A stretch of 64,000 nucleotides of DNA from Chlamydiota bacterium (lineage in GTDB: Bacteria; Chlamydiota; Chlamydiia; Chlamydiales; JAAZZY01). Below, one piece after another: positions 5,485 through 51,848 of this stretch; within the stretch, counting starts at the first letter, position 1, and each line of letters starts with the position of its first letter. The stretch is taken from contig JAJACV010000053.1 of assembly GCA_022601335.1 (NCBI GenBank), positions 6,293 to 70,292 of the forward strand, read 5' to 3'. The translations under genes were made by a program, and so were the position numbers. The notes under the pieces are model-generated. The model saw only the letters and a list, made by a program, of their open reading frames with translations, did no database searches and was not told the origin of the DNA.

Positions 5485-6957
5485 TTACCAAAATTTGAGA
5501 ATTTTCCACCAAAGTCCTCCAACAACTAACCAAACTAGAATGTTGCAGATACTCATAATGAGTCCTATTTGCCACCATTTCTTTAAAGAGACATATCCAG
5601 AGCTAAAGAATATGGGGGCAGGGCCACAACTGTAGTGGGTTAGTCCTCCAAATAAGCTGCTAAAGAAAGCTAAAATAAGCACTGTGAGTAGGGGCGGTGC
5701 TCCTATTTGGATAGCAGCTGCCAAAAAAGCAGAGTACATCGCTGTAAGGTGCGCTGTGTTGCTGGCGAAGAAGTAGTGACTGTAGAAATAAAGGACAATC
5801 ATAATCAGAAAAGCCCAGTGCCAAGTCATTGAGGAAATAAACGAGACAATGTTCATCGAAAACCAAGTGAAAAAACCGAGGTTTTTAAGAGCTGTTCCAA
5901 TGGCTACGAGAGTGCCTAACCAAAAAAGGGTGTCCCAAGCGGTGTGCTCTTTCAAACAATCTTTCCAGTTAATCACCCCACAAAACAATAAAAACATCAC
6001 ACCCAAAAGAGCGGCTGTTGTGTTTGAAATTTTTAGGTAAGCTCCAAATAGCCATAAATTTAATACGACAAAGAAAATACCGAGCATTAATTTTTCATCG
6101 AGAGTCATTTTACCCATTTCTTTAAGCTTATCGCTTGCCATAACGGGCGCTTCTGGAGAGTGTGACAATTTAGGGGGAATGATTTTTTTCAGAAGCATAG
6201 GAATAATCAGTATACTTGCAATTCCCGGGACAGAGGAGGCTAAAAACCACTTACCCCATGTTAAAGTAATTCCAAATTCGCTTGCAATTTCAGCTGCAAT
6301 TGGGTTAGCTGCCATGGATGTTAGAAACATAGCACTGACAATTACAGAACCTTGAAACGTCGCTATAATTAAGAATCTTCCGGTACTTAAAGTTTTGTCT
6401 TGTTCATCATAGGTTTTAGCTAAGGCTAAAACAATAGGAAAAATAATTCCTCCCGCTCTTGCTACTAGGCTTGGGATAAAAGGAGCTAAAATAAGTTCGC
6501 TTAAAATAATTCCGTAGACTAAGCCAATAATACGGTGACCAAATGATCTTACAAAGATATAGGAGGCTCGCATGGCAAGACCTGTCTTTATCAGACCTTG
6601 AGCTAGAAAGAAGGAAACAAAAATAAGCCAGATACTAGGGCTGCTTAGTCCTATAGAAATTTCCTTAAAAGTAAGAGTGTGTGTTGTAATGGCAATAAGA
6701 GAGCCCATCAAAACCATAGGAGCTACAGGGAGCGGCCTTGTAACAAGTCCTGTAATAATAAATAGAAATATAGCAAAAAGGTGCCAGGCTTGAGGGGTGA
6801 GTCCCGCAGGGACCGGAATAGCCCAAATACCAGCTCCGACTAAAGCTGTTATTAAGAAAGGGATCGGTTTGGCTCCTCTCCATTGAGCTTTTTCAGGAAC
6901 GACGATATGTCCCTTTTCTTGAACACTTGCTGTTTTATTAAATGTAGTCATAGGCAA
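5485..6957 (-). CDS. DASS/SLC13-family anion symporter (2-oxoglutarate/malate translocator-like)
   Basis: 490-aa polytopic membrane protein. Length and repeated-hairpin architecture are typical of DASS di/tricarboxylate transporters. Family assignment is by resemblance only. Confidence 0.65.
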   Translation of the reverse strand: MPMTTFNKTASVQEKGHIVVPEKAQWRGAKPIPFLITALVGAGIWAIPVPAGLTPQAWHLFAIFLFIITGLVTRPLPVAPMVLMGSLIAITTHTLTFKEISIGLSSPSIWLIFVSFFLAQGLIKTGLAMRASYIFVRSFGHRIIGLVYGIILSELILAPFIPSLVARAGGIIFPIVLALAKTYDEQDKTLSTGRFLIIATFQGSVIVSAMFLTSMAANPIAAEIASEFGITLTWGKWFLASSVPGIASILIIPMLLKKIIPPKLSHSPEAPVMASDKLKEMGKMTLDEKLMLGIFFVVLNLWLFGAYLKISNTTAALLGVMFLLFCGVINWKDCLKEHTAWDTLFWLGTLVAIGTALKNLGFFTWFSMNIVSFISSMTWHWAFLIMIVLYFYSHYFFASNTAHLTAMYSAFLAAAIQIGAPPLLTVLILAFFSSLFGGLTHYSCGPAPIFFSSGYVSLKKWWQIGLIMSICNILVWLVVGGLWWKILKFW

Positions 6958-8656: not shown

Positions 8657-9409
8657 TTAACGATCCGTGGAGAGAACTAAATTTTCTAAATCAAATCCGT
8701 GCAGCTGCTCTAACAGAAGAGCGTAGCTTACACCTACAGCTGTTTGTGTATTAATCTCTACCCATTTATGAGATGCTTTATAGTAATCTCTGATAGGTTC
8801 AAATTCATCATTAAATTTAACAAGTCTGTTTCTGATAGCCGCTTCGCAATCATCATTATTGGCTGTAAGATTGTGGCCACACTCATCACAAATACCTTCT
8901 TTTTTAGGAGGCATATAATCTAGGTGATAAGATTCACGGCAGTTTGGGCATGTTCTTCTACCTAATAAGCGATTAATAACAACCTCTTCCTCTATGAGCA
9001 GATTTACAGCTACTATGTTATGGTCTTTAGCTAGAATTTTATCCAGCATTTTAGCCTGATTGACTGTTCTTGGAAATCCATCTAAGATAAAGCCCTTTTG
9101 GCAGTCGGATTCTTTAATCCGTCTTGCTAATATTTTAGCGATCACTTCATCAGGCACGAGTTGTCCCTCAGACATATACTCTACAAGCTCGATAGAAAGA
9201 GGCGAGTTTTCATTGTTTTGAGCGCGCCTTAAAAGATCTCCCGTTGAAATATGCGGCAGCTGAGTGCCGCGGCTGAGTTTTTTACAAAGCACTCCTTTTC
9301 CTGCGCCAGGAGCTCCCATAAAAATAAAAACAGTTTGCTCACAATAACTTTTAGCTGGATTAACTAAGGTTAAAAGGAAAAGAGCAAGAAATGAGATGCG
9401 TTTGAACAT
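8657..9409 (-). CDS. Adenylate kinase paralogue with N-terminal Sec-type signal peptide
   Basis: I place the start at the ATG (rc of 9407-9409), preceded by AGGAG. The product begins MFKRISFLALFLLTLVNPAKSY, then FIFMGAPGAGKGVLCKKL, HISTGDLLRR and ILDGFPRT, with a Cys4 lid (CPNC...CDEC). The 279-aa track ORF would overlap the upstream adk. Confidence 0.8.
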   Translation of the reverse strand: MFKRISFLALFLLTLVNPAKSYCEQTVFIFMGAPGAGKGVLCKKLSRGTQLPHISTGDLLRRAQNNENSPLSIELVEYMSEGQLVPDEVIAKILARRIKESDCQKGFILDGFPRTVNQAKMLDKILAKDHNIVAVNLLIEEEVVINRLLGRRTCPNCRESYHLDYMPPKKEGICDECGHNLTANNDDCEAAIRNRLVKFNDEFEPIRDYYKASHKWVEINTQTAVGVSYALLLEQLHGFDLENLVLSTDR

Positions 9410-9417
9410 AATAACTC

Positions 9418-10119
9418 CTAATTGGATGTTAGCTGAGCATTTAAAGAAAGTTGAGGGAGTTTCTTTGAAAGATTGTCCATCAGATTTAAAAAACAATTGT
9501 CAACGGAGCCAAAAGCTGGGAGATCAAACCATACGGGGTGATCTTTATAGTGTTCTTCTAGGTTTTGGAATTCGTTTCGAAATAGATCTAATCTATCTCT
9601 TATGACTGTAGGATTGTCGTCGGATCTAGTAAATAAAGGGTGCTCGCAGTCCTCACAGTGGGTTTCTTTCTTTGAAGGAGCATAATCTACATGATAGATT
9701 TTAGCGCAGGAGTGACAGGTGCGTCTTCCTGATAACCTTTGGATAATAGTTGAGTCATCTAAACAGATATTGAGCAGGTACAGAGTTCGAGGATCTGCTA
9801 CATACTGATCAAGAACTTTAGCCTGATCAAGGGTGCGGGGAAAACCATCTAAGATAAAACCCTCTCTGCAGTCAAAAGATTGAATTCTCATTAGAAGAAG
9901 CTCAAGCATCATCTCATTTGAAACAAGTTTTCCTGCGTTAATGAGTTCTCTAATGGATAAAGCTATTTCAGTGTTTTCTTCTGAAACACGTCGAAGTAAG
10001 TCTCCTGTAGAAATATGGGGTAAGTTTAGAGTCATCGAAAGCTTTTTAGCTTGCGTACCTTTACCAGCTCCAGGAGGGCCAAAAAAGACAAATACGGGAC
10101 AATTAATTTTTTTTTGCAT
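9418..10119 (-). CDS. adk: Adenylate kinase (Zn-lid type)
   Basis: 233 aa. Motifs are FFGPPGAGKGTQAKKL, HISTGDLLRR and ILDGFPRT, with lid CHSC...CEDC. Confidence 0.9.
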   Translation of the reverse strand: MQKKINCPVFVFFGPPGAGKGTQAKKLSMTLNLPHISTGDLLRRVSEENTEIALSIRELINAGKLVSNEMMLELLLMRIQSFDCREGFILDGFPRTLDQAKVLDQYVADPRTLYLLNICLDDSTIIQRLSGRRTCHSCAKIYHVDYAPSKKETHCEDCEHPLFTRSDDNPTVIRDRLDLFRNEFQNLEEHYKDHPVWFDLPAFGSVDNCFLNLMDNLSKKLPQLSLNAQLTSN

Positions 10120-24534: not shown

Positions 24535-24708
24535 CCAGTATATAGAGGAGTTGAGAATGTAAAAGTTTTCTTCTCGCTTATTAGAAAATATAAGTAAATT
24601 ATTTTTTTGACTCTACTGCTTTGAAATAGGAGATTCTTTTAATATATTTAGTGAATTTTTAGATATTAAAGATAAAGGTTGGTACAATATCTGAAAATTA
24701 ATTATTTA

Positions 24709-26094
24709 ATGAGACTTATGAAAAAAGAATATGATGCTGTTATTATTGGTGGGGGTGGTGGACTTAAAATAGCTCGACCCGCTGCAAACTTAGGTTACCG
24801 TATCGCTGTTGTTGAGCCGGGTCCTTTAGGAGGAACTTGTTTAAACCGAGGTTGTATTCCGTCTAAAATGCTTATCCATCCAGCAGATGTCGTTCAACAA
24901 TTAAATGAGGCTTCTTCTTTTGAAGTATTGGGTGCAGCTCAGGTAGATTTTAAAAAATTGATAAAACGAGTTAATACTACAGTAGATGCTGAATCTCAAA
25001 GTATTGTTCCCTTACTAGAGAATCATCCTAATGTTGATTTTTATCCTTATTCAGCTAGATTTCTAGATAACAAGTCTGTTGAAGTTAATGGTGAAATTCT
25101 TTTTGGAAAAAAGTTTTTTATTGCTGCGGGAGCTCGTCCAGCTATTCCTCAAATACCCGGCCTTCAAGATACACCCTTTATGACCTCAACTGAGTTACTC
25201 AGAAGAGAAAATCTTCCCAAAAAAGTGATTATTTTAGGCGGGGGATACATTGCGTGTGAGCTGGGACATTATTTGGGAGCCATGGGGGTAGAGGTTTGTT
25301 TTATAGTCAGGAGCAAACTTTTAAGCCAGTTAGATGAGACCATTCAGAAAACCTTTGCTCAAGCTTTTTCTAACCGATTTAAAGTGATTCAGGGACTCCC
25401 TGATCAGGTCACTTATCAAAACGATGAGTTCAGAGTTTTTGTGAATGATAAAGAACTTATAAGTGACGCCCTGCTTGTCTCTACAGGGGTCGTCCCAAAT
25501 AGCGATCAGCTAAATCTAAAAGCGGCAAACATTGAAACAAATGAATCTGGTTTCATTAAAGTCGATGATCACTTGCAAACCAGTCAGAAAAGTATTTACG
25601 CTTTTGGAGATATTATCGGACGTTATTTATTTAGACATAGCGTTAATTTTGAAGGTGAATATCTTCTTTATGAACATTTTGAAAACTTAAATTCAAATAA
25701 ATCGATTGAATATCCCCCTATTCCCTACGGTGTTTTTACTTGGCCTCAAATTGCAGGTGTTGGTAAAACCGAGAATGATTTGAAAAAAGAACAAGTTAGT
25801 TATTTAGTTGGAGTCAATGAATATAAGGATAGTGCCATGGGAATGGCACTGCAAACAGATGTAGGGCTTGTAAAACTTTTGTTTGATAAAAAAACATTAA
25901 AGTTGCTAGGAGCGCATTGTATTGGGGAACAGGCAACGACTTTGATTCATATGTTGATTGCTTATTTGAATTGCGACGCAACTCTTAATCAGATTTTGAG
26001 GACGGTTTATATTCATCCAGCACTTCCTGAAGTTATTAGAAATGCAGCTCGAAAAGTAAGAGCTCAGTTGAACGAAGCTAAGAATTCATGTTAA
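24709..26094 (+). CDS. Class I pyridine nucleotide-disulfide oxidoreductase (dihydrolipoamide dehydrogenase / glutathione-reductase-like)
   Basis: Contains YDAVIIGGGGG, the redox-active GGTCLNRGCIPSK, a second GGGYIACE dinucleotide fold, and C-terminal HPALPE. The start is ATG 24709 or 24718. Confidence 0.8.
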   Translation: MRLMKKEYDAVIIGGGGGLKIARPAANLGYRIAVVEPGPLGGTCLNRGCIPSKMLIHPADVVQQLNEASSFEVLGAAQVDFKKLIKRVNTTVDAESQSIVPLLENHPNVDFYPYSARFLDNKSVEVNGEILFGKKFFIAAGARPAIPQIPGLQDTPFMTSTELLRRENLPKKVIILGGGYIACELGHYLGAMGVEVCFIVRSKLLSQLDETIQKTFAQAFSNRFKVIQGLPDQVTYQNDEFRVFVNDKELISDALLVSTGVVPNSDQLNLKAANIETNESGFIKVDDHLQTSQKSIYAFGDIIGRYLFRHSVNFEGEYLLYEHFENLNSNKSIEYPPIPYGVFTWPQIAGVGKTENDLKKEQVSYLVGVNEYKDSAMGMALQTDVGLVKLLFDKKTLKLLGAHCIGEQATTLIHMLIAYLNCDATLNQILRTVYIHPALPEVIRNAARKVRAQLNEAKNSC

Positions 26095-27416
26095 AACTAT
26101 TTAAAAGTATTGTAGCACCCTTGTTGAGCTTAGCTATTGTCATGGTTTCTGTGGGGCTTTTTTCTACCTTTGTTCCACTCAGACTTACTTTAGATGGACA
26201 TAGCTCTATTATTGCGGGAGCTGTTACATCGGCATACTTTGCAGGTCTTGTTCTCGGTTCCTTAAAAATAGAATCTTTTATTGCTCGAGTTGGGTACATT
26301 CGGACCTTTGCAGCTTTAGCGTCGATGACAGGTGCTATTGCTACTATTATGGGATTGCTTGTAAAACCTTATCTTTGGATCTTTCTTAGGTTTTCAATGG
26401 GAGTTTTTACAGCAGGTATTTATATTGTTATTGAAAGCTGGCTGCTGGTAGTTGGAGGAAATGATAGAAAAGGAGTTATATTAGCTTTCTATATGATAGC
26501 CTTTTATGCAGCTCAAGCAGGAGGGCAGTTTCTCTTAAATGTGGCACCTCCAATGTCGTTTATTCCCTTTAGCTTGGCGACTCTCTTTATTTCTCTTTCT
26601 GTTGTTCCTGTCTGTTTGACTAAGCATTCGACACCTTTTATAGAGGAGCCTTCTCTTTTAACCCCTCTTCAACTCCTTAAAATTTCAACTTTTGGCATAC
26701 TCTCAACCTTTGGGTCGGGTTTAATTATGGGAGCCTTTTTTGGCTTAGCGCCTGTTTTTGCCCATAATGTTGGGATGGTCACATCGGAGGTTGCCACCTA
26801 CATGGGAGTCACTATTATTGGAGGTTTTGTCCTTCAATGGCCTCTTGGGAAACTGTCTGATATGATTAATCGTCGATCTGTATTAATTGGTGTGAGTTTT
26901 ATTACCTCTATCTTAGCAATTTTAATTGCATTGGCATCCATTGTTTCTACTAACTTCTTATCGACGCTAACCGTCTTGTTTGGTGGATTTGCTTTTACGA
27001 TGTATCCCTTGAGTATTTCTTATACAAATGATTACTTAGACCCTAAAGATGTCGTTGCTGCGACAGGGGGACTCTTGGTCTGTTATGGAATAGGTTCTGT
27101 TGTGGGTCCTCTACTGGCGCCGCTTTGTATGAATGTATTTGGCCCCTCTGGGCTTTATGTTTACTTTTCAGTTATTTCAAGCTTAGTGGGGGGTATAGGG
27201 CTTTACAGAAAGCGTTTCAAGCCCTCTATTCCTCTTAGGGAACAAGTAGAGTACAGGCCGATCCCGCGTACTACTCCGATGGTATCAGAATTAGACCCTA
27301 GAAGTTCTGAGAAAAAAGAAAATCTAGAGGAATCGATATCGATAGATTCAAAGGAAGAATTAGCAGATTCTTTGAGTGACATTGAGGAAAGCGAAGAAGG
27401 AAGTCCTGTTAGCTGA
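26088..27416 (+). CDS. MFS transporter
   Basis: 442 aa with about 12 TM helices and an acidic C-terminal tail. Overlaps the upstream gene by 7 nt. Confidence 0.75.
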   Translation: MLKLFKSIVAPLLSLAIVMVSVGLFSTFVPLRLTLDGHSSIIAGAVTSAYFAGLVLGSLKIESFIARVGYIRTFAALASMTGAIATIMGLLVKPYLWIFLRFSMGVFTAGIYIVIESWLLVVGGNDRKGVILAFYMIAFYAAQAGGQFLLNVAPPMSFIPFSLATLFISLSVVPVCLTKHSTPFIEEPSLLTPLQLLKISTFGILSTFGSGLIMGAFFGLAPVFAHNVGMVTSEVATYMGVTIIGGFVLQWPLGKLSDMINRRSVLIGVSFITSILAILIALASIVSTNFLSTLTVLFGGFAFTMYPLSISYTNDYLDPKDVVAATGGLLVCYGIGSVVGPLLAPLCMNVFGPSGLYVYFSVISSLVGGIGLYRKRFKPSIPLREQVEYRPIPRTTPMVSELDPRSSEKKENLEESISIDSKEELADSLSDIEESEEGSPVS

Positions 27417-27425
27417 TTTTTTAGA

Positions 27426-29297
27426 TTAACTATCTTCTAAACTCTCAGAAATCTCTCTTAAAACTTCAGGTAATTTAAAAGTTTTTAAATAAGCTCTTAT
27501 TGTATCTCGAATATATGTCTCACTAAAAGTTCCTGGGACAATACCTTCTTCTTTTAAAAAGGATAAAGCAACCGTTTTTCTAGTCATTAGAGCTAGGTCA
27601 GCTAGATTGAATTTTTCTTTAGGACCGTGAAATACTATATCATTTAATTTGATGCCTTGCTCTTTTAAGAACTGCAAAATCCTATGAGAAGGATCTATTA
27701 TTCCTTCATATTTCATTATTTTGAGTAAAGCCATTATAGCTATTATATCGGAATCCTGAGGTAGAGAAATAAGACCTCTAAAAATGAGGTATTCTACCAT
27801 GTCAGAGGAGTTGCAAGCTGCTAAAGCAGCCGCCATATTAGTATAAACGGGAAAGGAGATGCTTTTTTGTTTTAGAAATTGAAGGGTATCAACGGAGCCT
27901 TCTGTAATAATTTTGGAACCCACTTCAGAAGAAATTGAGGTGGTTATTCCGAGTTTATCTCTATGTTCAAAAACTAATTCTAAGAGATCGATATCGCCCT
28001 CTAAACACAGGGATTCAAACAGTGTTCTTTTAGTCCAATGTTTCTCTTGAAATTTGATGGGAATTTCTATGTCGTTTGGAAAATTTTTTAAATACCATTC
28101 AAAAACCTTCTTTTTATGGATCTTGATAACTTGAAGATTGTCTAATGCAGATGGACGTAAAGAAGGGTTTTTTCTTAGCCACAATTGAATCAGAGGGTCT
28201 TGAAGTCGAGCAAGATTATGAGAGATAGTCGTTGCTACAACTTCCTTTTGCATATTTTTCAGACAAAGCAGGAGAGGTGTTATTTCATCCCTGAGTTGTG
28301 GTGAATGCACATCAAATCCACGCTCATGAAGTAATTGCAGAATTTCAACTTGTCCAAAGAGTGCAGCTAAGTGAGACAATGAGAGCACCGTTGCATCTTG
28401 AACATAGGGCCCATGGGGAGCAAGTAAAGCGTTTACACCTAAACAACCTCTTGTAGGAACCTGAGAACTGCCAATACCACCAAATAAGACATCCCTATGA
28501 TCATGATGAAAGGGGGATGGACCAAAGCCGGTAGCGCAAGGAGGTTCTCCTTTAATAACTAGTTCCTTTTCAATGAAAAATTGCAAAGCCTTTGCTTTGC
28601 CTAGAATAGTGGCATATTCAGAAAAAGTGAAGTGGTTATAAAAATGATTTGCATTATTCCACATAGGGTCTTCAGAGTATATTTTCAATTGATTGAGATC
28701 CTCTGAATCGATAGCTCTAAACACATTAGAGCGAAATGTTATTTCCTGGAGATTGTGATTTCCGCTAGGCAATGAGGTCATGCCCATTCTTTCTAATAAT
28801 CCACTTCCTTCTTCATGAGTCTCTAAGGTGCTCTGAAGTAAATCAGGATCATCAGAAGTGTCTAAAACTTCCTGACATCTATCTAGAAATGAAGAGTATC
28901 TTTGAGCCGCCTCTTCATGGCTTTCAAATAGTCTTGTAAATAGAGGAAAACATTGAATAACAACCGGTGGAGAAGCGAGTTGTTTGAAGGTTCCCAAATG
29001 TTCAAAAATGGATTCAGCTAAAGTTGCTTTCGTGGGCAGTAATCCCTCAGACAATTTTATTATTTGAGAAAAAATCGATTTAATTTTTGAAACTAGAGTT
29101 TCATTTATCACCATATAAGGAATTAAAGTATAGGTCGGTCGATTAAACTGAGCTGAAACCCCACTTCCAGGTCCTTCGGGGGGCGGTGGGGGATCAAAAA
29201 AGTTGCTTTGTGAAAAATTAAAAAGGTTCGTTTGAGGGTGGGGTAAATCGAAAAAGGAAGAAGATGTAGAGTTTGTCGATAATAAGTTAGAAGTCAT
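27426..29297 (-). CDS. Large hypothetical protein with degenerate ankyrin-like repeats and a disordered Pro/Ser/Asn-rich N-terminus
   Basis: 623 aa. The N-terminus is MTSNLLSTNSTSSSFFDLPHPQTNLFNFSQSNFFDPPPPPEGPGSG. ANK-like units include LSHLAALFGQVEILQLLHERGFDVHSP...ITPLLLCL. The start overlaps the aclA stop by 11 nt. Confidence 0.65.
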   Translation of the reverse strand: MTSNLLSTNSTSSSFFDLPHPQTNLFNFSQSNFFDPPPPPEGPGSGVSAQFNRPTYTLIPYMVINETLVSKIKSIFSQIIKLSEGLLPTKATLAESIFEHLGTFKQLASPPVVIQCFPLFTRLFESHEEAAQRYSSFLDRCQEVLDTSDDPDLLQSTLETHEEGSGLLERMGMTSLPSGNHNLQEITFRSNVFRAIDSEDLNQLKIYSEDPMWNNANHFYNHFTFSEYATILGKAKALQFFIEKELVIKGEPPCATGFGPSPFHHDHRDVLFGGIGSSQVPTRGCLGVNALLAPHGPYVQDATVLSLSHLAALFGQVEILQLLHERGFDVHSPQLRDEITPLLLCLKNMQKEVVATTISHNLARLQDPLIQLWLRKNPSLRPSALDNLQVIKIHKKKVFEWYLKNFPNDIEIPIKFQEKHWTKRTLFESLCLEGDIDLLELVFEHRDKLGITTSISSEVGSKIITEGSVDTLQFLKQKSISFPVYTNMAAALAACNSSDMVEYLIFRGLISLPQDSDIIAIMALLKIMKYEGIIDPSHRILQFLKEQGIKLNDIVFHGPKEKFNLADLALMTRKTVALSFLKEEGIVPGTFSETYIRDTIRAYLKTFKLPEVLREISESLEDS

Positions 29298-31152
29298 TTA
29301 AATGTTCTGGAATTATATTCTCAGCTTTTTTTATGTCATAAAGAATATCGTCAGTCTGATGACGATAAAGCGGCATATTCAATCTTTTTTCATCTAAAAT
29401 ATGACCTACGAATCCTATAGATCTACCAATCACAAAGAAGGCATTTAGTACGCCCACATCAATGAATTCATTAATGTCGTCTTCTGAATAATTTAAGTTT
29501 CTCCACATATCCACCATAAGCACGCCTATGACACCATCGACATTGAGAATTAAATTTTCCTTTTTAGCTGTCGTAATTTGCTCAACCCTTAAAGCATAAT
29601 CTAATAAGGAGGTGCTCGGAAAACTATCATAAGCAAAGCGCTTTAGACAAGAGACTCTTAAATCTGGGTTTCTTATCGATTTCACTCGGTGCCCAATCCC
29701 AGGAATAGGAGTGTTTGTTTTTTTCATCTCTTCAACAAATTCTTTAGGGTCTTGTTCTTTTGAAAGCGCATTTTTAAAATATTTAGCAGCTCCATCAATA
29801 GCGCCACCAAATTTAGGTCCAATAGTAAGTAGGCCTGTAACAAGCGATGAAACTAAGTCTTTTCCAGCTCTTGCGGTGACTCTAGAATTATGGGCTCCGC
29901 TGACCGCAGGTCCGTGGTCAGCCACTGTCTTAATAACGGTTTCAATAAACTCAACAGCCCATCTTGGGAAACGTTTTTTAAACCAAAGTAGCGTAAGTAC
30001 ATCGCCTATAGAAAAGCCTGTTTCTGGTGTTGCAAGAGAACTAATAGGGTAACCCGCATAAACAGCTTCTTCTCCTCGATCATCCGAAATAGTGCAGATA
30101 AAGTTTGTCGCTTTTCTGACCTTACCCGTTTTTTGAGCTGTCTTATAGTCTTCTGGAATATTGGGAACTTCTTCTTCGGAAGTCTCTTGAATAATTCCTT
30201 CTGCATGGAGGTCTTTATAGATAGCTTCTATGACTTCAGGTAGATGGTTAAAGGTTTTAGGAACATGTATACCCGCTTTTCTCATGGCTTTATTTTTAGC
30301 TTCAGCAGTTTCTATATCCTTTTTTGCCGATGCTCCAGCATGGCCAAATTGAATAGATTGATTGAAGTGGTTAGCCACTGTACCTATACACCAAGCTATT
30401 ACAGGTTTTTTTATCAGACCTTTTGTTACAGCTTCAACTATCTCATATTCAGCGAGTCCTCCAACTTCACCCAGTACAATCATGTATTTGATTGCTGGAT
30501 TATTTTCCATTCTTAGAAGATGGTCTATGTAAGAAGAGCCAGGGAAACGATCTCCACCAATAGCAAGCCCCTCTGCCATCCCATCGGTTCTTAATGAAAT
30601 AATATTAGCTAGCTCGTTGAACAATCCGCCTGACTTTGTTACAACACCACAAGAGCCAGGCCGGTGCAACTTTGCATTCAAAATATTAGAGATAGTGCCT
30701 CCCACATTTCCTGTTTTGAAGCCTCCTGGAGTAATAGCTCCCACACTTGCAGGACCAATGACAACTTTCCCCTGATTTTTGGCCTCGAGAGCTAGCTCTC
30801 TTGCAAAACGCTCAGGAATACCTTCTGCTGTAATCATGAGTGTTTTTAAAGAAGGGAATTTTAAAGCTTCTTTCGTTACATCATACGCGGATCTAAAAGA
30901 GGCGAAGTTTAACAAAACGGCGGTATCAGGATGTTTTTCTACAGCTTCTTGAGTAGATGTGTAAAGAGGGATTAAAACCTCTTTAGCTCCCATAAAAAAC
31001 TTTTGAAAAGAGGAGGGTTTAGAGGGCTGAACAATGGCTGAAATAGAGGGAGTATCACGTCCGCATAAGTAGTCATAGTCTAGCATTCTTTGGATAGCTT
31101 TTGGATTATTATTCCAGAAAATTGCCTGCGTCTCTCTGTTAAATAAAGTCAT
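29287..31152 (-). CDS. aclA: ATP-citrate lyase large subunit (CoA-ligase alpha-like domain fused to a citrate-synthase-like domain)
   Basis: 621 aa. Contains the phosphohistidine loop QFGHAGA, VADHGPAVSGAHNSRVTARAGKDLVSSL..GLLTIGPKFGGA, GIGHRVKS, and LILNVDG ... GHILDEKRL..PLYRH. These closely match my recollection of eukaryotic ACLY. Confidence 0.9.
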   Translation of the reverse strand: MTLFNRETQAIFWNNNPKAIQRMLDYDYLCGRDTPSISAIVQPSKPSSFQKFFMGAKEVLIPLYTSTQEAVEKHPDTAVLLNFASFRSAYDVTKEALKFPSLKTLMITAEGIPERFARELALEAKNQGKVVIGPASVGAITPGGFKTGNVGGTISNILNAKLHRPGSCGVVTKSGGLFNELANIISLRTDGMAEGLAIGGDRFPGSSYIDHLLRMENNPAIKYMIVLGEVGGLAEYEIVEAVTKGLIKKPVIAWCIGTVANHFNQSIQFGHAGASAKKDIETAEAKNKAMRKAGIHVPKTFNHLPEVIEAIYKDLHAEGIIQETSEEEVPNIPEDYKTAQKTGKVRKATNFICTISDDRGEEAVYAGYPISSLATPETGFSIGDVLTLLWFKKRFPRWAVEFIETVIKTVADHGPAVSGAHNSRVTARAGKDLVSSLVTGLLTIGPKFGGAIDGAAKYFKNALSKEQDPKEFVEEMKKTNTPIPGIGHRVKSIRNPDLRVSCLKRFAYDSFPSTSLLDYALRVEQITTAKKENLILNVDGVIGVLMVDMWRNLNYSEDDINEFIDVGVLNAFFVIGRSIGFVGHILDEKRLNMPLYRHQTDDILYDIKKAENIIPEHLNDF

Positions 31153-32468
31153 ACTAAAACCCCTTCTTTTTGAGTAATCAGTGCTTTTCTTACGATGTCA
31201 GTTAGGTGGGTATCAGGGCCATGGACTTCAATAGGAAGGCCTAATTGGCTAGCTGCTGTTTCTATGTTTTTTAGGCCTATTTCATAGTTAGGTCCGCCGC
31301 GGCGTACAAAAATACGCGTTTCTACTTCTTTCATTTGTACATGCATTTCTCGGAAAGCTTGAATAATTCCATCAAATGTTTTGGCAACATCGGTAAAGTT
31401 AGCAATGGATCCACCGATAATTAAAACCTTACCTCGTCCTTTTGGATCTTTTTGCGCGGTCATGAGCTTTAAAACACCCATAGTATAGCAGTAAGTTTCC
31501 TCTTTAGAAGGATTGCCTGAATATTCCCCGTAGTTAGCAATTTCAGAAGCGCCCCATAGATTCGCAATACTATCTGCAAAAACAACGGAGGCTCCTCCTC
31601 CAGCTACAAGAGTCCAAACGATCCCTTCAGAATTAAGTAAACTAAGTTTTAAGCTAGCTCCTGAATTTTCATCCATTGTTTGAATTTCTTTTTCAATGGC
31701 AGTGGGTTCTTTTTCTCCAAAAGCAGAAGGGAATTCAAGATCTCCCCAGGCCTGATTCATTAAGAAGCGTGCTGTATCATCTATTCGAGCTACTACATCT
31801 AGAATATGAACGGTATTTCCATCTAATATAAAGGGATTAAACTCTAAGTAAGAAAAGTGTAAGTTTTTAAAGAATTGATAAAAGCAAAAGACTAAATCAG
31901 CGAACTGTTTTTTGTTTTCGATCTCTTTTGGAGTATTGTTATATATGAGTTCATTTAATTCGGTATCAGTGGACTGAGGCGCTATACGTAACTCTTTCAC
32001 GCTGTCCCAATTCTCTTCTACTTCAACGCCTCCAAACGCTGACATGTAAAGCAAGTCGCAATCGTTTTCGACGGAAAAAGCGACATAGTATTCAGGTGCT
32101 TTTTTTAAGTTGCAAAAAGGTTCTACAATAAATGTATTTAATTGACCTTTAGTTCCACAGATAAGCGTCGTTTCTTTTTGGCTATTGGCATTGATCCACT
32201 CTTTTGCAAGTTTAAGATCGATATCACCCGCAGATTTGTTTTTTAGTAAGACGAGCCGGTTAAGTCCTCTTTTACCAAAAAGCATATCAGGTTTGACCAC
32301 TAAACCTGTTTTTTTTAGCCAATTTTTTTCTTTAGACTGCTCTACTAAGTCATCACCACTATGTACAAGGGCGCTGGAAAAGGGATATTTAAAATTTGGG
32401 AAATAGGTGTTCCAATGTTTTGCTAATATTTTTTTAGCGCTGTATTCTCTGATAGGTTTTTGTGCCAT
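31149..32468 (-). CDS. aclB: ATP-citrate lyase small subunit (ATP-grasp / succinyl-CoA-synthetase-beta-like)
   Basis: 439 aa. Contains LVVKPDMLFGKRG, SGASLKLSLLN, LVAGGGASVVFADSI, ANYGEYSGNPS, IGGSIANFTDVAKTF and FVRRGGPNY. Overlaps aclA by 4 nt (ATGA). Confidence 0.9.
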   Translation of the reverse strand: MAQKPIREYSAKKILAKHWNTYFPNFKYPFSSALVHSGDDLVEQSKEKNWLKKTGLVVKPDMLFGKRGLNRLVLLKNKSAGDIDLKLAKEWINANSQKETTLICGTKGQLNTFIVEPFCNLKKAPEYYVAFSVENDCDLLYMSAFGGVEVEENWDSVKELRIAPQSTDTELNELIYNNTPKEIENKKQFADLVFCFYQFFKNLHFSYLEFNPFILDGNTVHILDVVARIDDTARFLMNQAWGDLEFPSAFGEKEPTAIEKEIQTMDENSGASLKLSLLNSEGIVWTLVAGGGASVVFADSIANLWGASEIANYGEYSGNPSKEETYCYTMGVLKLMTAQKDPKGRGKVLIIGGSIANFTDVAKTFDGIIQAFREMHVQMKEVETRIFVRRGGPNYEIGLKNIETAASQLGLPIEVHGPDTHLTDIVRKALITQKEGVLV

Positions 32469-33161: not shown

Positions 33162-34409
33162 TTACAAAGCATCCATTTTGACTCTGAGTATATCATTCCA
33201 GTTTGTTGTGTAGTCAGGCGTTTTATGTTTAGCTTTGCAAGACCAAGAGCGCGAAAACCCTTCAGCTGCATAAAACAGGGTGTTTTCCCCATATCGTTGA
33301 TTAACAGCGTCTAGTGTTTTCATTAGCTCTTTTTGAGACTGGTTTTCTGAATGTGTTAAATCAAGTTGAATGTTTTTTTGTGAAGCGAGTTGATTGAGTT
33401 GTATTCCGGCTTTTAGATAGACTCCTTTTATATAAAGTTGCTTTAATAATTTTAGAGATGTTTCGATATAGATAGACGTTGAATTTGATGGAAATGAAAG
33501 AGAAGCTGTTTGCGTAGCAAAACCGTCTCTTCTTTTTAGATAAAGAGTCAATAAATGAGCGCTGTAGCCTTTGTTCCTAATTTTTAGTGCTGCTTTGGCA
33601 GCATAATGTGCGACAGCTTCAGATAGATGCTCATAAGACGTAATTGAAGAACCGAAAGATTTAGAGTAAATTAAGGACTTTCTTTTGGAATCATTAACCT
33701 CAGGGACGTAGCAAGGTGTTCCTCTAAGTTCAAGGACTGTTCTTAATCCTGGTAAATGTAACTTTCTACGTATCCATCCCTCTGAAGCTACCTTTAAATC
33801 ATATGCCGTTATGATTTGATGAGAATGTAGTTTTTTATTTTGAGCTCTTCCTATTCCCCAAATATCTCTTATAGGAATTGTTTTTAGAATAGCATCGTGT
33901 GTTTTGGGGTCCATAAGTGAGTAAAGTTTATCGTTCATTTTTTTGGCTTTATGAGCCGCGACTTTAGCAAGTGTTTTAGTGGGCCCTAAACCTATCGACA
34001 CAGGGATTCCGGTCCATTGAAAAATACGTTCTTTTAAATAGCGAAAGTCTTCAAGCGTTTGACAGTCTATGGGCACAAAAGCTTCGTCAATAGAGTAAAT
34101 TTCTAAATCCGAGCTAAATTGAGAAATAACTTGCATAACTCGATCAGAGAAATCGGCATAAAGATTGAAGTTAGAGGAAAATAAGTAAGCTTTGTGCCTT
34201 TCAAGAAGGTTTTTATATTCAAATAAAGGCGCTCCCATAGGTACACCTAAATCTTTAACTTCTTGAGATCTGGCTATAATACAACCATCGTTAGTTGATA
34301 AAACAGCAACAGGTAGGAAGTTTAAATGCGGTTTAAAAACACGTTCACATGAAACAAAAAAATTGTTGCAATCTATGAGAGCAAATCCTTTACAAACTGT
34401 GGATGGCAT
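33162..34409 (-). CDS. umuC: Y-family translesion DNA polymerase (UmuC-like)
   Basis: 415 aa. Contains FALIDCNNFFVSCE, SIDEAF, and WGIG ... LKVA (HhH). Follows and overlaps the umuD-like gene. Confidence 0.85.
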   Translation of the reverse strand: MPSTVCKGFALIDCNNFFVSCERVFKPHLNFLPVAVLSTNDGCIIARSQEVKDLGVPMGAPLFEYKNLLERHKAYLFSSNFNLYADFSDRVMQVISQFSSDLEIYSIDEAFVPIDCQTLEDFRYLKERIFQWTGIPVSIGLGPTKTLAKVAAHKAKKMNDKLYSLMDPKTHDAILKTIPIRDIWGIGRAQNKKLHSHQIITAYDLKVASEGWIRRKLHLPGLRTVLELRGTPCYVPEVNDSKRKSLIYSKSFGSSITSYEHLSEAVAHYAAKAALKIRNKGYSAHLLTLYLKRRDGFATQTASLSFPSNSTSIYIETSLKLLKQLYIKGVYLKAGIQLNQLASQKNIQLDLTHSENQSQKELMKTLDAVNQRYGENTLFYAAEGFSRSWSCKAKHKTPDYTTNWNDILRVKMDAL

Positions 34410-34821
34410 AAGTGACTATACCCCATATAGAAAAATCCATTTCTTCTGTGATTTCTATAGGTTTAAACTTTTCATTCTCAGGTAGGAGAAAAAGCTTAGA
34501 TTTGCTTTTTTTAATTTTTTTAACCGTGAACTCTCCATTAATCACAGCAAGCACAACGTGGTTTTCTTTTGGAGTGATAGAGCGGTCTACAATTAAAAGA
34601 TCTTGATTGTAAATTCCAGCGTCTTTCATAGACTCTCCTTCAACGCGGACGAAAAAGGTTGCAGCTGGATGCTTAATAAGTGATTTATTTAGATCTAATT
34701 TGCGTTCAATACCGTCATCAGCAGGAGAAGGAAACCCTGCCGAAACAGAGTGACTAAACAACGAAAGAAGGTTATTTTGAGAGTCCTCGCTTTGATAAAT
34801 AGAACAAACTTTCATAGACAT
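34390..34821 (-). CDS. umuD: UmuD-like S24 self-cleaving peptidase (no DNA-binding domain)
   Basis: 143 aa. Has the cleavage-site region VSAGFPSPADD, catalytic Ser in GESMKDAGI and Lys in FTVKKIKK. Confidence 0.85.
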   Translation of the reverse strand: MSMKVCSIYQSEDSQNNLLSLFSHSVSAGFPSPADDGIERKLDLNKSLIKHPAATFFVRVEGESMKDAGIYNQDLLIVDRSITPKENHVVLAVINGEFTVKKIKKSKSKLFLLPENEKFKPIEITEEMDFSIWGIVTYAIHSL

Positions 34822-51227: not shown

Positions 51228-51848
51228 ATGCAAACCAAAATCTTTTTAACACTCCTTTTGTTGCCTTGTATTTTGATTTCCGAAACTTCTAGGGAAGGTA
51301 TTGACAAGCTTATTGCAGGAAATCTGCGTTTTCAAAAAGATCAAATGATTTGTCAGAACCAAAATGAAAATAGACGGGCTGAGCTGATTGATAATCAATC
51401 TCCGTTCGCTGTTATTGTTGCTTGCTCAGACTCGCGGGTAGCGCCTGAGATAATCTTTGACCAAGGGATAGGAGATCTATTTGTTATTAGAGTGGCAGGA
51501 AACGTTATTGGACCTTTCGAAATGGAAAGTATCGAATATGCAGTTAAGGAGTTAGGTTCTTCTTGTATTCTTGTTATAGGACATAAGAACTGTGGCGCTG
51601 TCAATGCTGTGGTTCAAAACAAAGTAGAAGGCATTCCTTTTATTGCTGAGATGATTAAGCCTTCGGTCTCTAAGGCTAAAATCTCAAAGGCAAAGGATCT
51701 TCTGAAAGATTCAATAGAGTTTAATGCTGAAAAAATGAGCGAACTTATTCAACAGTCTCACCTTATTAAACAATTCACCTCTCAAAATAAAGTTCATGTC
51801 TATGCTGGATATTACGACTTTCAAACAGGTCATGTAAGCATACTTTAG
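51228..51848 (+). CDS. Beta-class carbonic anhydrase with signal peptide
   Basis: 206 aa. Signal MQTKIFLTLLLLPCILIS; zinc ligand motifs CSDSRV and GHKNCGAV. Confidence 0.85.
   Translation: MQTKIFLTLLLLPCILISETSREGIDKLIAGNLRFQKDQMICQNQNENRRAELIDNQSPFAVIVACSDSRVAPEIIFDQGIGDLFVIRVAGNVIGPFEMESIEYAVKELGSSCILVIGHKNCGAVNAVVQNKVEGIPFIAEMIKPSVSKAKISKAKDLLKDSIEFNAEKMSELIQQSHLIKQFTSQNKVHVYAGYYDFQTGHVSIL

Follow-up and report, generated by a model that had tools for sequence, protein, structure and literature searches.

The gene pair aclB-aclA described here very probably encodes a bacterial-type, heteromeric ATP-citrate lyase (ACL) of a sponge chlamydia of, or like, the family MCF-D, which was acquired once, has been inherited vertically since then and presumably cleaves citrate in a non-autotrophic metabolism. 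The genes are located in a 64-kb stretch of DNA that was analysed as a whole and is called the window in the following.

Subunits, domains and catalytic residues of the chlamydial ACL

The two genes (Table 1) had been described in a sequence-only reading of the window, and their positions and the ATGA overlap between them were both confirmed from the list of open reading frames (ORFs) and the junction sequence. In the junction (AGTATGACT) the stop codon TGA of aclB overlaps the ATG of aclA, which suggests translational coupling of the two genes. The small subunit contained the Pfam domains Citrate_bind (PF16114, E 3.9e-72, 242 bits at a cut-off of 26.8) and Citrate_synth_N (PF24948, E 1.6e-60, 205 bits at a cut-off of 83), and in the large subunit Ligase_CoA (PF00549) and, over residues 398-597, Citrate_synt (PF00285) were found. 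In a search against the PDB, the small subunit matched residues 2-419 of human ACLY with 303 bits (E 2.6e-89) and the large subunit matched residues 491-1095 with 733 bits (E 1.8e-219); the enzyme of M. concilii was matched with 379 bits (small subunit, ACLY-A) and 701 bits (large subunit, ACLY-B). The small subunit aligned over its full length to 6hxi_A.

Table 1 Features of the ACL locus and of the window
Feature	Positions	Strand	Length	Description
aclB-type small subunit ORF	31149..32468	(-)	439 aa	ATP-grasp domain and citrate-binding domain
aclA-type large subunit ORF	29287..31152	(-)	621 aa	CoA-binding/CoA-ligase part with phosphohistidine loop and fused citryl-CoA-lyase (citrate-synthase-like) module
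ATGA stop/start overlap of aclB and aclA	31149..31152	(-)		Junction AGTATGACT
GHAGA loop, aclA residues 270-274	30331..30345	(-)		H271 equivalent to the phosphohistidine H760 of human ACLY (motif and alignment)
aclA H488 codon	29689..29691	(-)		In GIGHRVKS; conserved
aclA D539 codon	29536..29538	(-)		Equivalent to human D1026, in LNVDG of the citryl-CoA lyase module (alignment)
IGGSIANFT citrate-binding loop, small subunit residues 351-359	31392..31418	(-)		N357/F358/T359 equivalent to human N346/F347/T348
Ankyrin-repeat gene	27426..29297	(-)	623 aa	Weak matches to Ank profiles
Dihydrolipoyl-dehydrogenase (Lpd)-like flavoprotein and MFS transporter genes	24679..27416	(+)		Convergent with aclBA; common to relatives
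DASS di/tricarboxylate transporter gene	5485..6957			PF00939 (E 1.3e-133), TIGR00785 (395 bits)
Beta-carbonic anhydrase gene	51228..51848			

Every motif that had been quoted from the two proteins was found: LVVKPD, GGGASVV, ANYGEYSG, IGGSIANFT and FVRRGGPNY start at residues 56, 290, 311, 351 and 387 of the small subunit, and GHAGA, ADHGPAVSGAHN, ARAGKDLVSSL, GIGHRVKS and LILNVDG start at residues 270, 411, 427, 485 and 534 of the large subunit. In the alignment, the large subunit had kept the equivalents of E599, H760, H900, H975, D1026 and R1065 of human ACLY, with H413 (in ADHGPA), H488 and D539 aligning to H900, H975 and D1026. The roles of this catalytic His/His/Asp of the lyase module are presumably those described by Verschueren et al. 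2019. Likewise, the equivalents of K58, R66, N203, D216, G281-283, G309, N346, F347, T348 and R379 were kept in the small subunit. Here, G318, N357, F358, T359 and R390 are identical to human G309, N346, F347, T348 and R379, which we take to be the citrate-binding residues as listed by Sun et al. 2010. In sum, the small-subunit domains, the GHAGA loop, the fused lyase triad and the citrate-binding residues of a heteromeric AclAB-type enzyme (EC 2.3.3.8) are all present, and the assignment as a two-subunit ACL made of an ATP-grasp/citrate-binding and a CoA-ligase/citrate-synthase-like subunit is supported by Pfam, PDB matches and single residues.

A succinyl-CoA synthetase (SCS) was rejected, as the NCBIfam SCS models gave only 128 and 66 bits, with cut-offs at 336 and 375 bits. 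The same holds for a CcsAB+Ccl system (6hxq, 6hxp), which is homologous and has the same overall chemistry, but is distant (CcsB 82, CcsA 53 and Ccl 61 bits, as compared to 700+ for ACLs); in Ccs/Ccl the lyase is a separate protein, whereas lyase and alpha-type subunit are one polypeptide in the window. AclAB of Chlorobium limicola (6hxj) is homologous throughout and shares the overall chemistry, but is much more distant (415 bits for AclA and 130 bits).

Human ACLY (PDB 6hxh, 6poe and others) has its domains in the same order and does not differ in any of the catalytic and ligand residues checked, and the solved mechanism is therefore transferable. Based on the conservation of these residues, ATP and citrate would be taken by the ATP-grasp part of the small subunit, H271 would be phosphorylated, citryl phosphate would be converted to citryl-CoA, and the C-terminal module with H413, H488 and D539 would split citryl-CoA into acetyl-CoA and oxaloacetate. 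Judged from the sequences, cleavage of citrate to acetyl-CoA and oxaloacetate is the likely role of the enzyme.

Phylogeny, gene order and inheritance

In a careful AclA tree, the chlamydial sequences formed one clade (support 100/100) with a Marinamargulis-like group as sister (98/94). The bacterial clade around the chlamydial ACL, comprising Marinamargulisbacteria, Campylobacterota and Aquificota, was supported as a whole with 100/100, and the eukaryotes were separate (100/98). Quick AclA and AclB trees agreed with the careful AclA tree. Eukaryotes were sampled with Metazoa, one fungus and one dinoflagellate; a search with the C-terminal part of human ACLY returned almost exclusively animal sequences, and the few named members of the 50%-identity representative clusters were Paraphysoderma and Effrenium. 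AclAB of Campylobacterota/Aquificota (Nitratiruptor, Caminibacter, Nautilia, Phorcysia) and of Marinamargulisbacteria fall into the same 100/100 clade and share subunit sizes and motifs, with identities to the window of 66-68% (AclA) and 56-58% (AclB). These bacteria are free-living, whereas the chlamydial host is of the intracellular type, as had been read from the letters. Its host-associated setting is confirmed by ankyrin-repeat genes, several of which are found within the window, by the presence of the locus in sponge metagenome runs and by the relationship to chlamydial metagenome-assembled genomes (MAGs). The locus was found in DNA runs only and in no RNA run. The samples of the sponge-metagenome assembly from which the window comes include Halichondria panicea P_S1.

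The nearest relatives are chlamydial MAGs with 81-86% identity (tblastn) and metagenome proteins with up to 88%, followed by Marinamargulisbacteria and Campylobacterota with 65-69%. The window belongs to a sub-clade, with members 84-88% identical, that is sister to the sequences of the MCF-D MAGs (1070360-7, bin105s, O_S4.2_6 and O_S4.2_7). Among the closest relatives are MAGs assigned to the chlamydial family MCF-D by Dharamshi 2022, and AclA/AclB of MCF-D, monophyletic with campylobacterotal AclA, were reported by Köstlbacher et al. 2021 (Nat Commun 12:4021, PMC8242063). ACL, K15230 and K15231 are not mentioned in the sponge-chlamydiae paper of Dharamshi 2022 and its supplements, nor in a paper on coral chlamydiae. 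The MCF-D enzymes have the same two-gene architecture and the same tree position beside the Campylobacterota-type ACL, and AclA and AclB of the window are 81-82% and 63-65% identical to those of bin105s and O_S4.2_6.

A block of at least 14 genes is colinear between the window and O_S4.2_6 (contig L002; like L001 an MCF-D MAG), and parts of it are colinear with L001 and L003. The part comprising NUDIX, aclB, aclA, MFS, Lpd-like and Na/H exchanger genes is kept even in a lineage of 74% identity (L084), and the Lpd-like and MFS genes are colinear in all four. This shared block argues for vertical inheritance within the chlamydial lineage. AclA is the best-conserved protein of the block (81-82%, as compared to 74-75% for BipA), which argues for a selected function. 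With the same 100/100 clade and a common locus, the gene pair is orthologous to the ACL of MCF-D, and the ACL tree and the synteny, rather than marker genes, place the host genome presumably in, or very close to, MCF-D. The window differs from the MCF-D MAGs in that it comes from another sponge-metagenome assembly and has an extra ankyrin-repeat gene right after aclA. This gene overlaps the 3' end of aclA by 11 nt and has no counterpart at the same position in L001-L003, where the MFS gene directly abuts aclA; it is probably outside the ACL function. A near-consensus promoter (ATGACA-16-TATAAT) is found at 29339..29312, within the 3' end of aclA.

The gene pair was very probably acquired once, from another bacterium, by an ancestor of the chlamydial lineage; the nearest sampled sister group are Marinamargulisbacteria-like marine bacteria, and the donor proper may differ. 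Since then, it has very probably been inherited vertically in the shared gene block under strong purifying selection.

Physiological role of the chlamydial ACL

The gene content of relatives was taken from published tables; these cover MCF-D relatives and not the genome of the window itself, and this holds for the absence of 2-oxoglutarate synthase (OGOR), pyruvate synthase (PFOR) and fumarate reductase as well as for the presence of citrate synthase. K00174 and K03737 are both 0 in 1070360-7, and PorA is 0 in all four MCF-D MAGs, which have PDH, OGDH (SucA) and citrate synthase instead. The MCF-D MAGs encode a full oxidative TCA set including citrate synthase, aconitase, Icd and SucA; Pta, AckA and 3-4 genes of the citrate synthase family (COG0372) are present in these relatives, too. 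Citrate that is either taken up from the host or produced in the cell itself would be cleaved to supply acetyl-CoA and oxaloacetate, which we consider more likely than an autotrophic reductive TCA (rTCA) cycle.

ACL and citrate synthase in one compartment form a futile cycle unless they are regulated and, therefore, direction and role in vivo are uncertain. The ACL reaction is reversible, and the enzyme could mainly form citrate with conservation of ATP, or serve a partial reductive branch in hypoxia, instead of providing acetyl-CoA from host citrate. ATP-yielding use of ACL is established for Desulfobacter; the citrate-forming direction was reportedly described for Desulfobacter postgatei by Möller, Schauder, Fuchs and Thauer in 1987. 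Furthermore, PDH, Pta and AckA of the MCF-D relatives make the supply of acetyl-CoA independent of ACL. However, with 3-4 COG0372 genes in the same relatives ACL is not needed for making citrate, and chlamydiae as a rule obtain ATP by uptake from their host, which lowers the worth of one more substrate-level ATP. A role of the partial reductive branch in hypoxia and redox balance was proposed by Köstlbacher et al. 2021 (PMC8242063), and ACL may serve such a branch for redox balance in addition to citrate cleavage; that citrate formation or the reductive branch is the main function appears rather unlikely.

Far less probable still is a function as key enzyme of a complete autotrophic rTCA cycle, although Campylobacterota and Aquificota fix carbon in the rTCA cycle with enzymes of this clade and a beta-carbonic anhydrase gene is encoded in the window. 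Fixation of CO2 in Campylobacterota and Aquificota relies on ACL together with OGOR and PFOR, whereas both enzymes were reported to be missing in ACL-bearing chlamydial MAGs (Köstlbacher et al. 2021, PMC8242063), in line with the MCF-D tables. The sequence-only reading had noted that no autotrophy genes are visible in the window and, indeed, none of the ~45 annotated ORFs is rTCA-specific. It had also named, as an outcome that would speak against its own interpretation, a position inside ordinary bacterial rTCA clades together with a full rTCA gene set; the trees gave the former, but the latter is reported absent in family members.

Comparison with the eukaryotic enzyme

The proteins had been described as strikingly eukaryote-like, and a transfer between bacterium and eukaryote in either direction had been suggested. 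The scores with human ACLY are high, and the eukaryotic clade neighbours the whole bacterial clade in the careful AclA tree with moderate support (84/83). However, AclA shares 54% identity with human ACLY, as compared to 68% with Nitratiruptor, Caminibacter and Marinamargulisbacteria, and AclB shares 43% with human/primate ACLY. Both values are not only below those to the bacterial relatives but also below those of the free-living rTCA bacteria to human ACLY (AclA 56-57%, AclB 49%), and a particular likeness to eukaryotes was thus not supported. The motifs that had given this impression are conserved family-wide across ACL. The chlamydial clade is nested within bacteria in both subunit trees (100/100), in agreement with the published ACL tree, and monophyly of chlamydiae and eukaryotic ACLY/ACLA-ACLB was rejected (delta lnL 129, AU p = 4.3e-7). 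In addition, animal ACLY is one fused polypeptide with a linker, whereas the window has two genes, split with a bacterial ATGA overlap. With the eukaryotes sampled here, an exchange of ACL between a eukaryotic host and the chlamydia, in whichever direction, is therefore extremely improbable.

That the locus was wrongly binned or assembled from DNA of a Campylobacterota or Marinamargulis bacterium in the same sample can virtually be dismissed. The organism is known from metagenome assemblies alone, and the GC content is slightly higher in the ACL region (0.38-0.40) than in the window on average (~0.36), but the BipA gene shows the same slight rise, the genes lie in the middle of 64 kb rich in ankyrin-repeat genes, and the gene order recurs in four chlamydial MAG contigs that were assembled independently, in different studies and from different samples, which rules out contamination.

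Discussion

That chlamydiae have ACL, that it has a campylobacterotal affinity and that a full rTCA cycle is missing was already published in 2021 (PMC8242063); the locus analysed here is another orthologue at the level of the family, and it has little evolutionary consequence. What is added is that eukaryote-likeness is family-wide and in chlamydiae rather lower than higher, that a link to eukaryotes is statistically rejected, that the locus belongs to a gene block common to the compared relatives with AclA as its best-conserved protein, and that the nearest sampled sister are Marinamargulisbacteria-like ACLs rather than those of Campylobacterota proper.

A puzzle of modest interest is the reason why ACL is retained by a bacterium that lives inside cells and has both PDH and citrate synthase. 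Cleavage of host-derived citrate, the putative role given in the sequence-only reading, is plausible. In this case, citrate could be taken up by the MFS transporter encoded beside aclBA in relatives, or by a DASS or SDF carrier; the DASS transporter had been predicted correctly, and its gene is located 22 kb from aclBA and outside the block common to relatives. Tentatively, and with considerable doubt, we suggest that MCF-D keep ACL beside the complete oxidative TCA cycle to use citrate released from the mitochondria of the host as a source of acetyl-CoA, for making fatty acids and lipids of their own, and of oxaloacetate. If true, the chlamydial ACL would be a bacterial, functionally convergent copy of the eukaryotic cytosolic route from citrate to acetyl-CoA.

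Identification of the ATP-citrate lyase genes

The aclB-type and aclA-type ORFs adjoin each other, and the junction sequence, AGTATGACT, revealed that the aclB-type stop TGA overlaps the aclA-type start ATG (ATGA overlap). The two-gene ATP-citrate lyase (ACL) of the sequence-only reading was, indeed, found, with 10/10 of its quoted motifs at the expected places, and ACL identity was confirmed by Pfam domains and full-length matches to solved ACLs. The small subunit contains Citrate_synth_N (ACL ATP-grasp; E 1.6e-60) and Citrate_bind (E 3.9e-72), the large subunit Ligase_CoA and Citrate_synt. Among solved structures, the large subunit matched human ACLY residues 491-1095 end to end (733 bits), Methanosaeta concilii ACLY-B (701 bits) and Chlorobium limicola AclA (415 bits). 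For the small subunit, the matches were M. concilii ACLY-A at 379 bits, human ACLY 2-419 at 303 bits and Chlorobium AclB at 130 bits. In these searches, citryl-CoA synthetase and citryl-CoA lyase reached just 53-82 bits; the NCBIfam models of succinyl-CoA synthetase scored 128 bits (cut-off 336) and 66 bits (cut-off 375).

Features of the window and of two other contigs
Feature	Position	Strand	Remarks
DASS carrier	5485..6957		22 kb from ACL, outside the shared block
Two tandem adenylate kinase genes	8657..10119	-
MFS gene	26088..27416		transporter adjoining aclBA in the relatives compared
Ankyrin-like gene	27426..29297	-	623 aa, weak ankyrin matches; between aclA and MFS gene
Promoter-like site	29339..29312	-	near-consensus sigma-70, ATGACA-16-TATAAT (11/12); inside aclA 3' end
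aclA-type ORF	29287..31152	-	621 aa, large subunit
aclB-type ORF	31149..32468	-	439 aa, small subunit
umuD-like/umuC-like pair	33162..34821	-	S24 peptidase (PRK10276, 166 bits); PRK03609, 317 bits
Beta-class carbonic anhydrase	51228..51848	+	PF00484, E 7.9e-34; ~20 kb from ACL
Symporter gene, contig L084	6019..7299		sodium:dicarboxylate symporter family (PF00375); ~1.4 kb upstream of aclB, one gene between
aclB/'double AclA' pair, contig L085	4715..9063		followed by HdrA-, MvhD-, FrhB- and HdrB/C-like genes

The window proteins were aligned to human/primate ACLY and compared at functional sites from the structural literature on ACLY (Sun et al. 2010/2011; Verschueren et al. 2019; Wei et al. 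2020). In the large subunit, human E599, H760 (phosphohistidine), H900, H975, D1026 and R1065 correspond to E110, H271, H413, H488, D539 and R577. The small subunit is identical at human K58, R66, N203, D216, G281-283, G309, N346, F347, T348 and R379; it has no N-terminal extension and no signal sequence, and its MAQKPIREY matches archaeal MAQRGIREY. Since the checked residues are conserved, the ACL appears catalytically competent.

The 621-aa protein is also encoded on contigs of the ENA assemblies DHAR22-1_SAMN20424373 and DHAR22-1_SAMN20209033, the latter from the sponge Halichondria panicea (sample P_S1; Dharamshi et al. 2022), and the public runs holding the locus are sponge metagenomes only. 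The window has a GC content of ~36% and contains several ankyrin-repeat genes. Nearest ACL relatives among species-representative genomes are the chlamydial MAGs L001-L004 (81-86% identity). Together, sponge runs, ankyrin-repeat genes and MAG relatives bear out the proposed host-associated setting. L001 (bin105s) and L002 (O_S4.2_6) were classed as MCF-D (Dharamshi et al. 2022); ACL is not mentioned in the main text and supplements of that paper. Since ACL in chlamydiae was already published (Köstlbacher et al. 2021, PMC8242063), the window locus is a further orthologue of a known enzyme.

The enzyme is of bacterial origin

The sequence had been read as strikingly eukaryote-like and as a possible bacterium-eukaryote transfer. 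Neither view was supported. AclA and AclB are 53.7% and 43.1% identical to human/primate ACLY but 68.4% and 58% to Nitratiruptor and 66-68% and 56% to Marinamargulisbacteria; AclA is 68.4% identical to Caminibacter, AclB 56% to Nautilia and 56.5% to Phorcysia. In both subunits, the enzymes of free-living rTCA bacteria come closer to the human one than the chlamydial ACL does: Nitratiruptor AclA and AclB are 55.7% and 49% identical to human/primate, Caminibacter AclA 57.4% to human, and AclB of Nautilia and Phorcysia 49% to primate. Among 50%-identity representatives, a bacterial-type AclA came first (65%), followed by named eukaryotes (51-54%; Paraphysoderma 54%, Effrenium 51%). The motifs recognised before are conserved throughout the ACL family.

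Chlamydial ACL was described as related to the enzymes of Epsilonproteobacteria and Aquificae (Köstlbacher et al. 2021, PMC8242063). In a quick AclA tree (102 sequences, 614 columns, LG+C20+F+G4), the window fell into a 24-member clade (SH-aLRT 100) that includes the named chlamydial MAG sequences and whose sister (98) is a Marinamargulisbacteria-like marine group; a long branch with full support unites both with Campylobacterota, and eukaryotes formed a separate clade. A careful tree of 52 sequences (ultrafast bootstrap/SH-aLRT) supported the chlamydial clade at 100/100, its position as sister to the Marinamargulis-like group at 98/94, the bacterial clade at 100/100 and the eukaryotic one at 100/98. 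The latter two neighbour each other (84/83), which explains the general resemblance. One clade of chlamydial and eukaryotic-clade sequences was rejected by the AU test (delta lnL 129, p = 4.3e-7). In agreement, the AclB tree nested the chlamydial clade (98) among bacteria: the enclosing clade (99) also takes in Marinamargulisbacteria, Campylobacterota and the aquificotan Phorcysia, and M. concilii and eukaryotes fall outside it. Eukaryotes in these trees comprise animals, one fungus and one dinoflagellate, plants missing, because the third homology search yielded animals almost exclusively.

Four proteins of 1020-1040 aa (P0020, P0031, P0033, P0034) are 'double AclA' forms, in which a complete AclA is joined to a second, partial one (CoA-ligase and citrate-synthase-like part); they are preceded by aclB on prokaryotic metagenome contigs. 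They share 62-64% identity with human ACLY and fall inside the eukaryote-containing clade, beside fungal and animal sequences.

A shared gene block

When the window was compared with L001, L002 and L003 at the protein level, a colinear block emerged: DUF502 (54%), BipA (74-75%), PspC-like (56-64%), TPR protein (47-52%), Na/H exchanger (72%), Lpd-like flavoprotein (58-61%), MFS transporter (67-70%), AclA (81-82%), AclB (63-65%), NUDIX (53-55%), UmuC (51%) and UmuD (57%). AclA is the best conserved, and the block is fullest in L002, where more genes follow. The gene order common to window and relatives argues against an assembly artefact. L084, a more distant chlamydia-like contig (AclA 74% identical), keeps NUDIX, aclB, aclA, MFS, Lpd-like and Na/H exchanger genes in this arrangement. 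Block and partial arrangement argue for a single old ACL acquisition, followed by vertical descent under purifying selection. On the 579-kb contig L083 (AclA P0024, 74% identical), aclBA has other neighbours on its flanks, namely IS630/DDE_3 transposase fragments and a HigB/HTH toxin-antitoxin pair, which suggests that the operon moved at least once within the wider clade.

Locally, the window block differs in the ankyrin-like gene alone; 11 nt of this gene overlap with the aclA stop, and L001-L003 have nothing equivalent at this site. The umuD/umuC-like pair (translesion polymerase V) lies just upstream of NUDIX-aclBA, and L002 has this pair too.

Possible role

That the genes are intact, the checked residues conserved, the origin bacterial and the locus shared was established directly; the gene content of relatives is taken from the literature and comprises a complete oxidative TCA set and PDH, without 2-oxoglutarate: or pyruvate:ferredoxin oxidoreductase. 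The four MCF-D MAGs encode COG0372 citrate-synthase family proteins (3-4), aconitase (AcnA, 1-3), Icd (1), SucA (1-2) and PDH/acetoin E1-beta components (3), PorA being 0 (gene tables, Dharamshi et al. 2022). MAG 1070360-7 has one each of ACL, citrate synthase, SDH, SCS, PDH, Pta and AckA, with K00174 = 0 and K03737 = 0 (Köstlbacher table, PMC8242063); two AMP kinases are also tabulated for it, and the window has tandem adenylate kinase genes. ACL-bearing chlamydial MAGs were reported to be without ferredoxin-dependent pyruvate synthase and 2-oxoglutarate synthase (Köstlbacher et al. 2021, PMC8242063). We infer that the ACL does not take part in autotrophic CO2 fixation.

A reverse or redox-balancing role is the main alternative, in line with the suggestion of Köstlbacher et al. 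2021 (PMC8242063) that a partial rTCA may balance redox in hypoxic conditions, but we consider it rather improbable. Cleavage of citrate to acetyl-CoA and oxaloacetate is the most likely predicted activity, favoured by a modest margin of confidence. The DASS carrier pointed out before is genuine. The symporter of L084 is a possible substrate carrier; its position is not conserved in the window.
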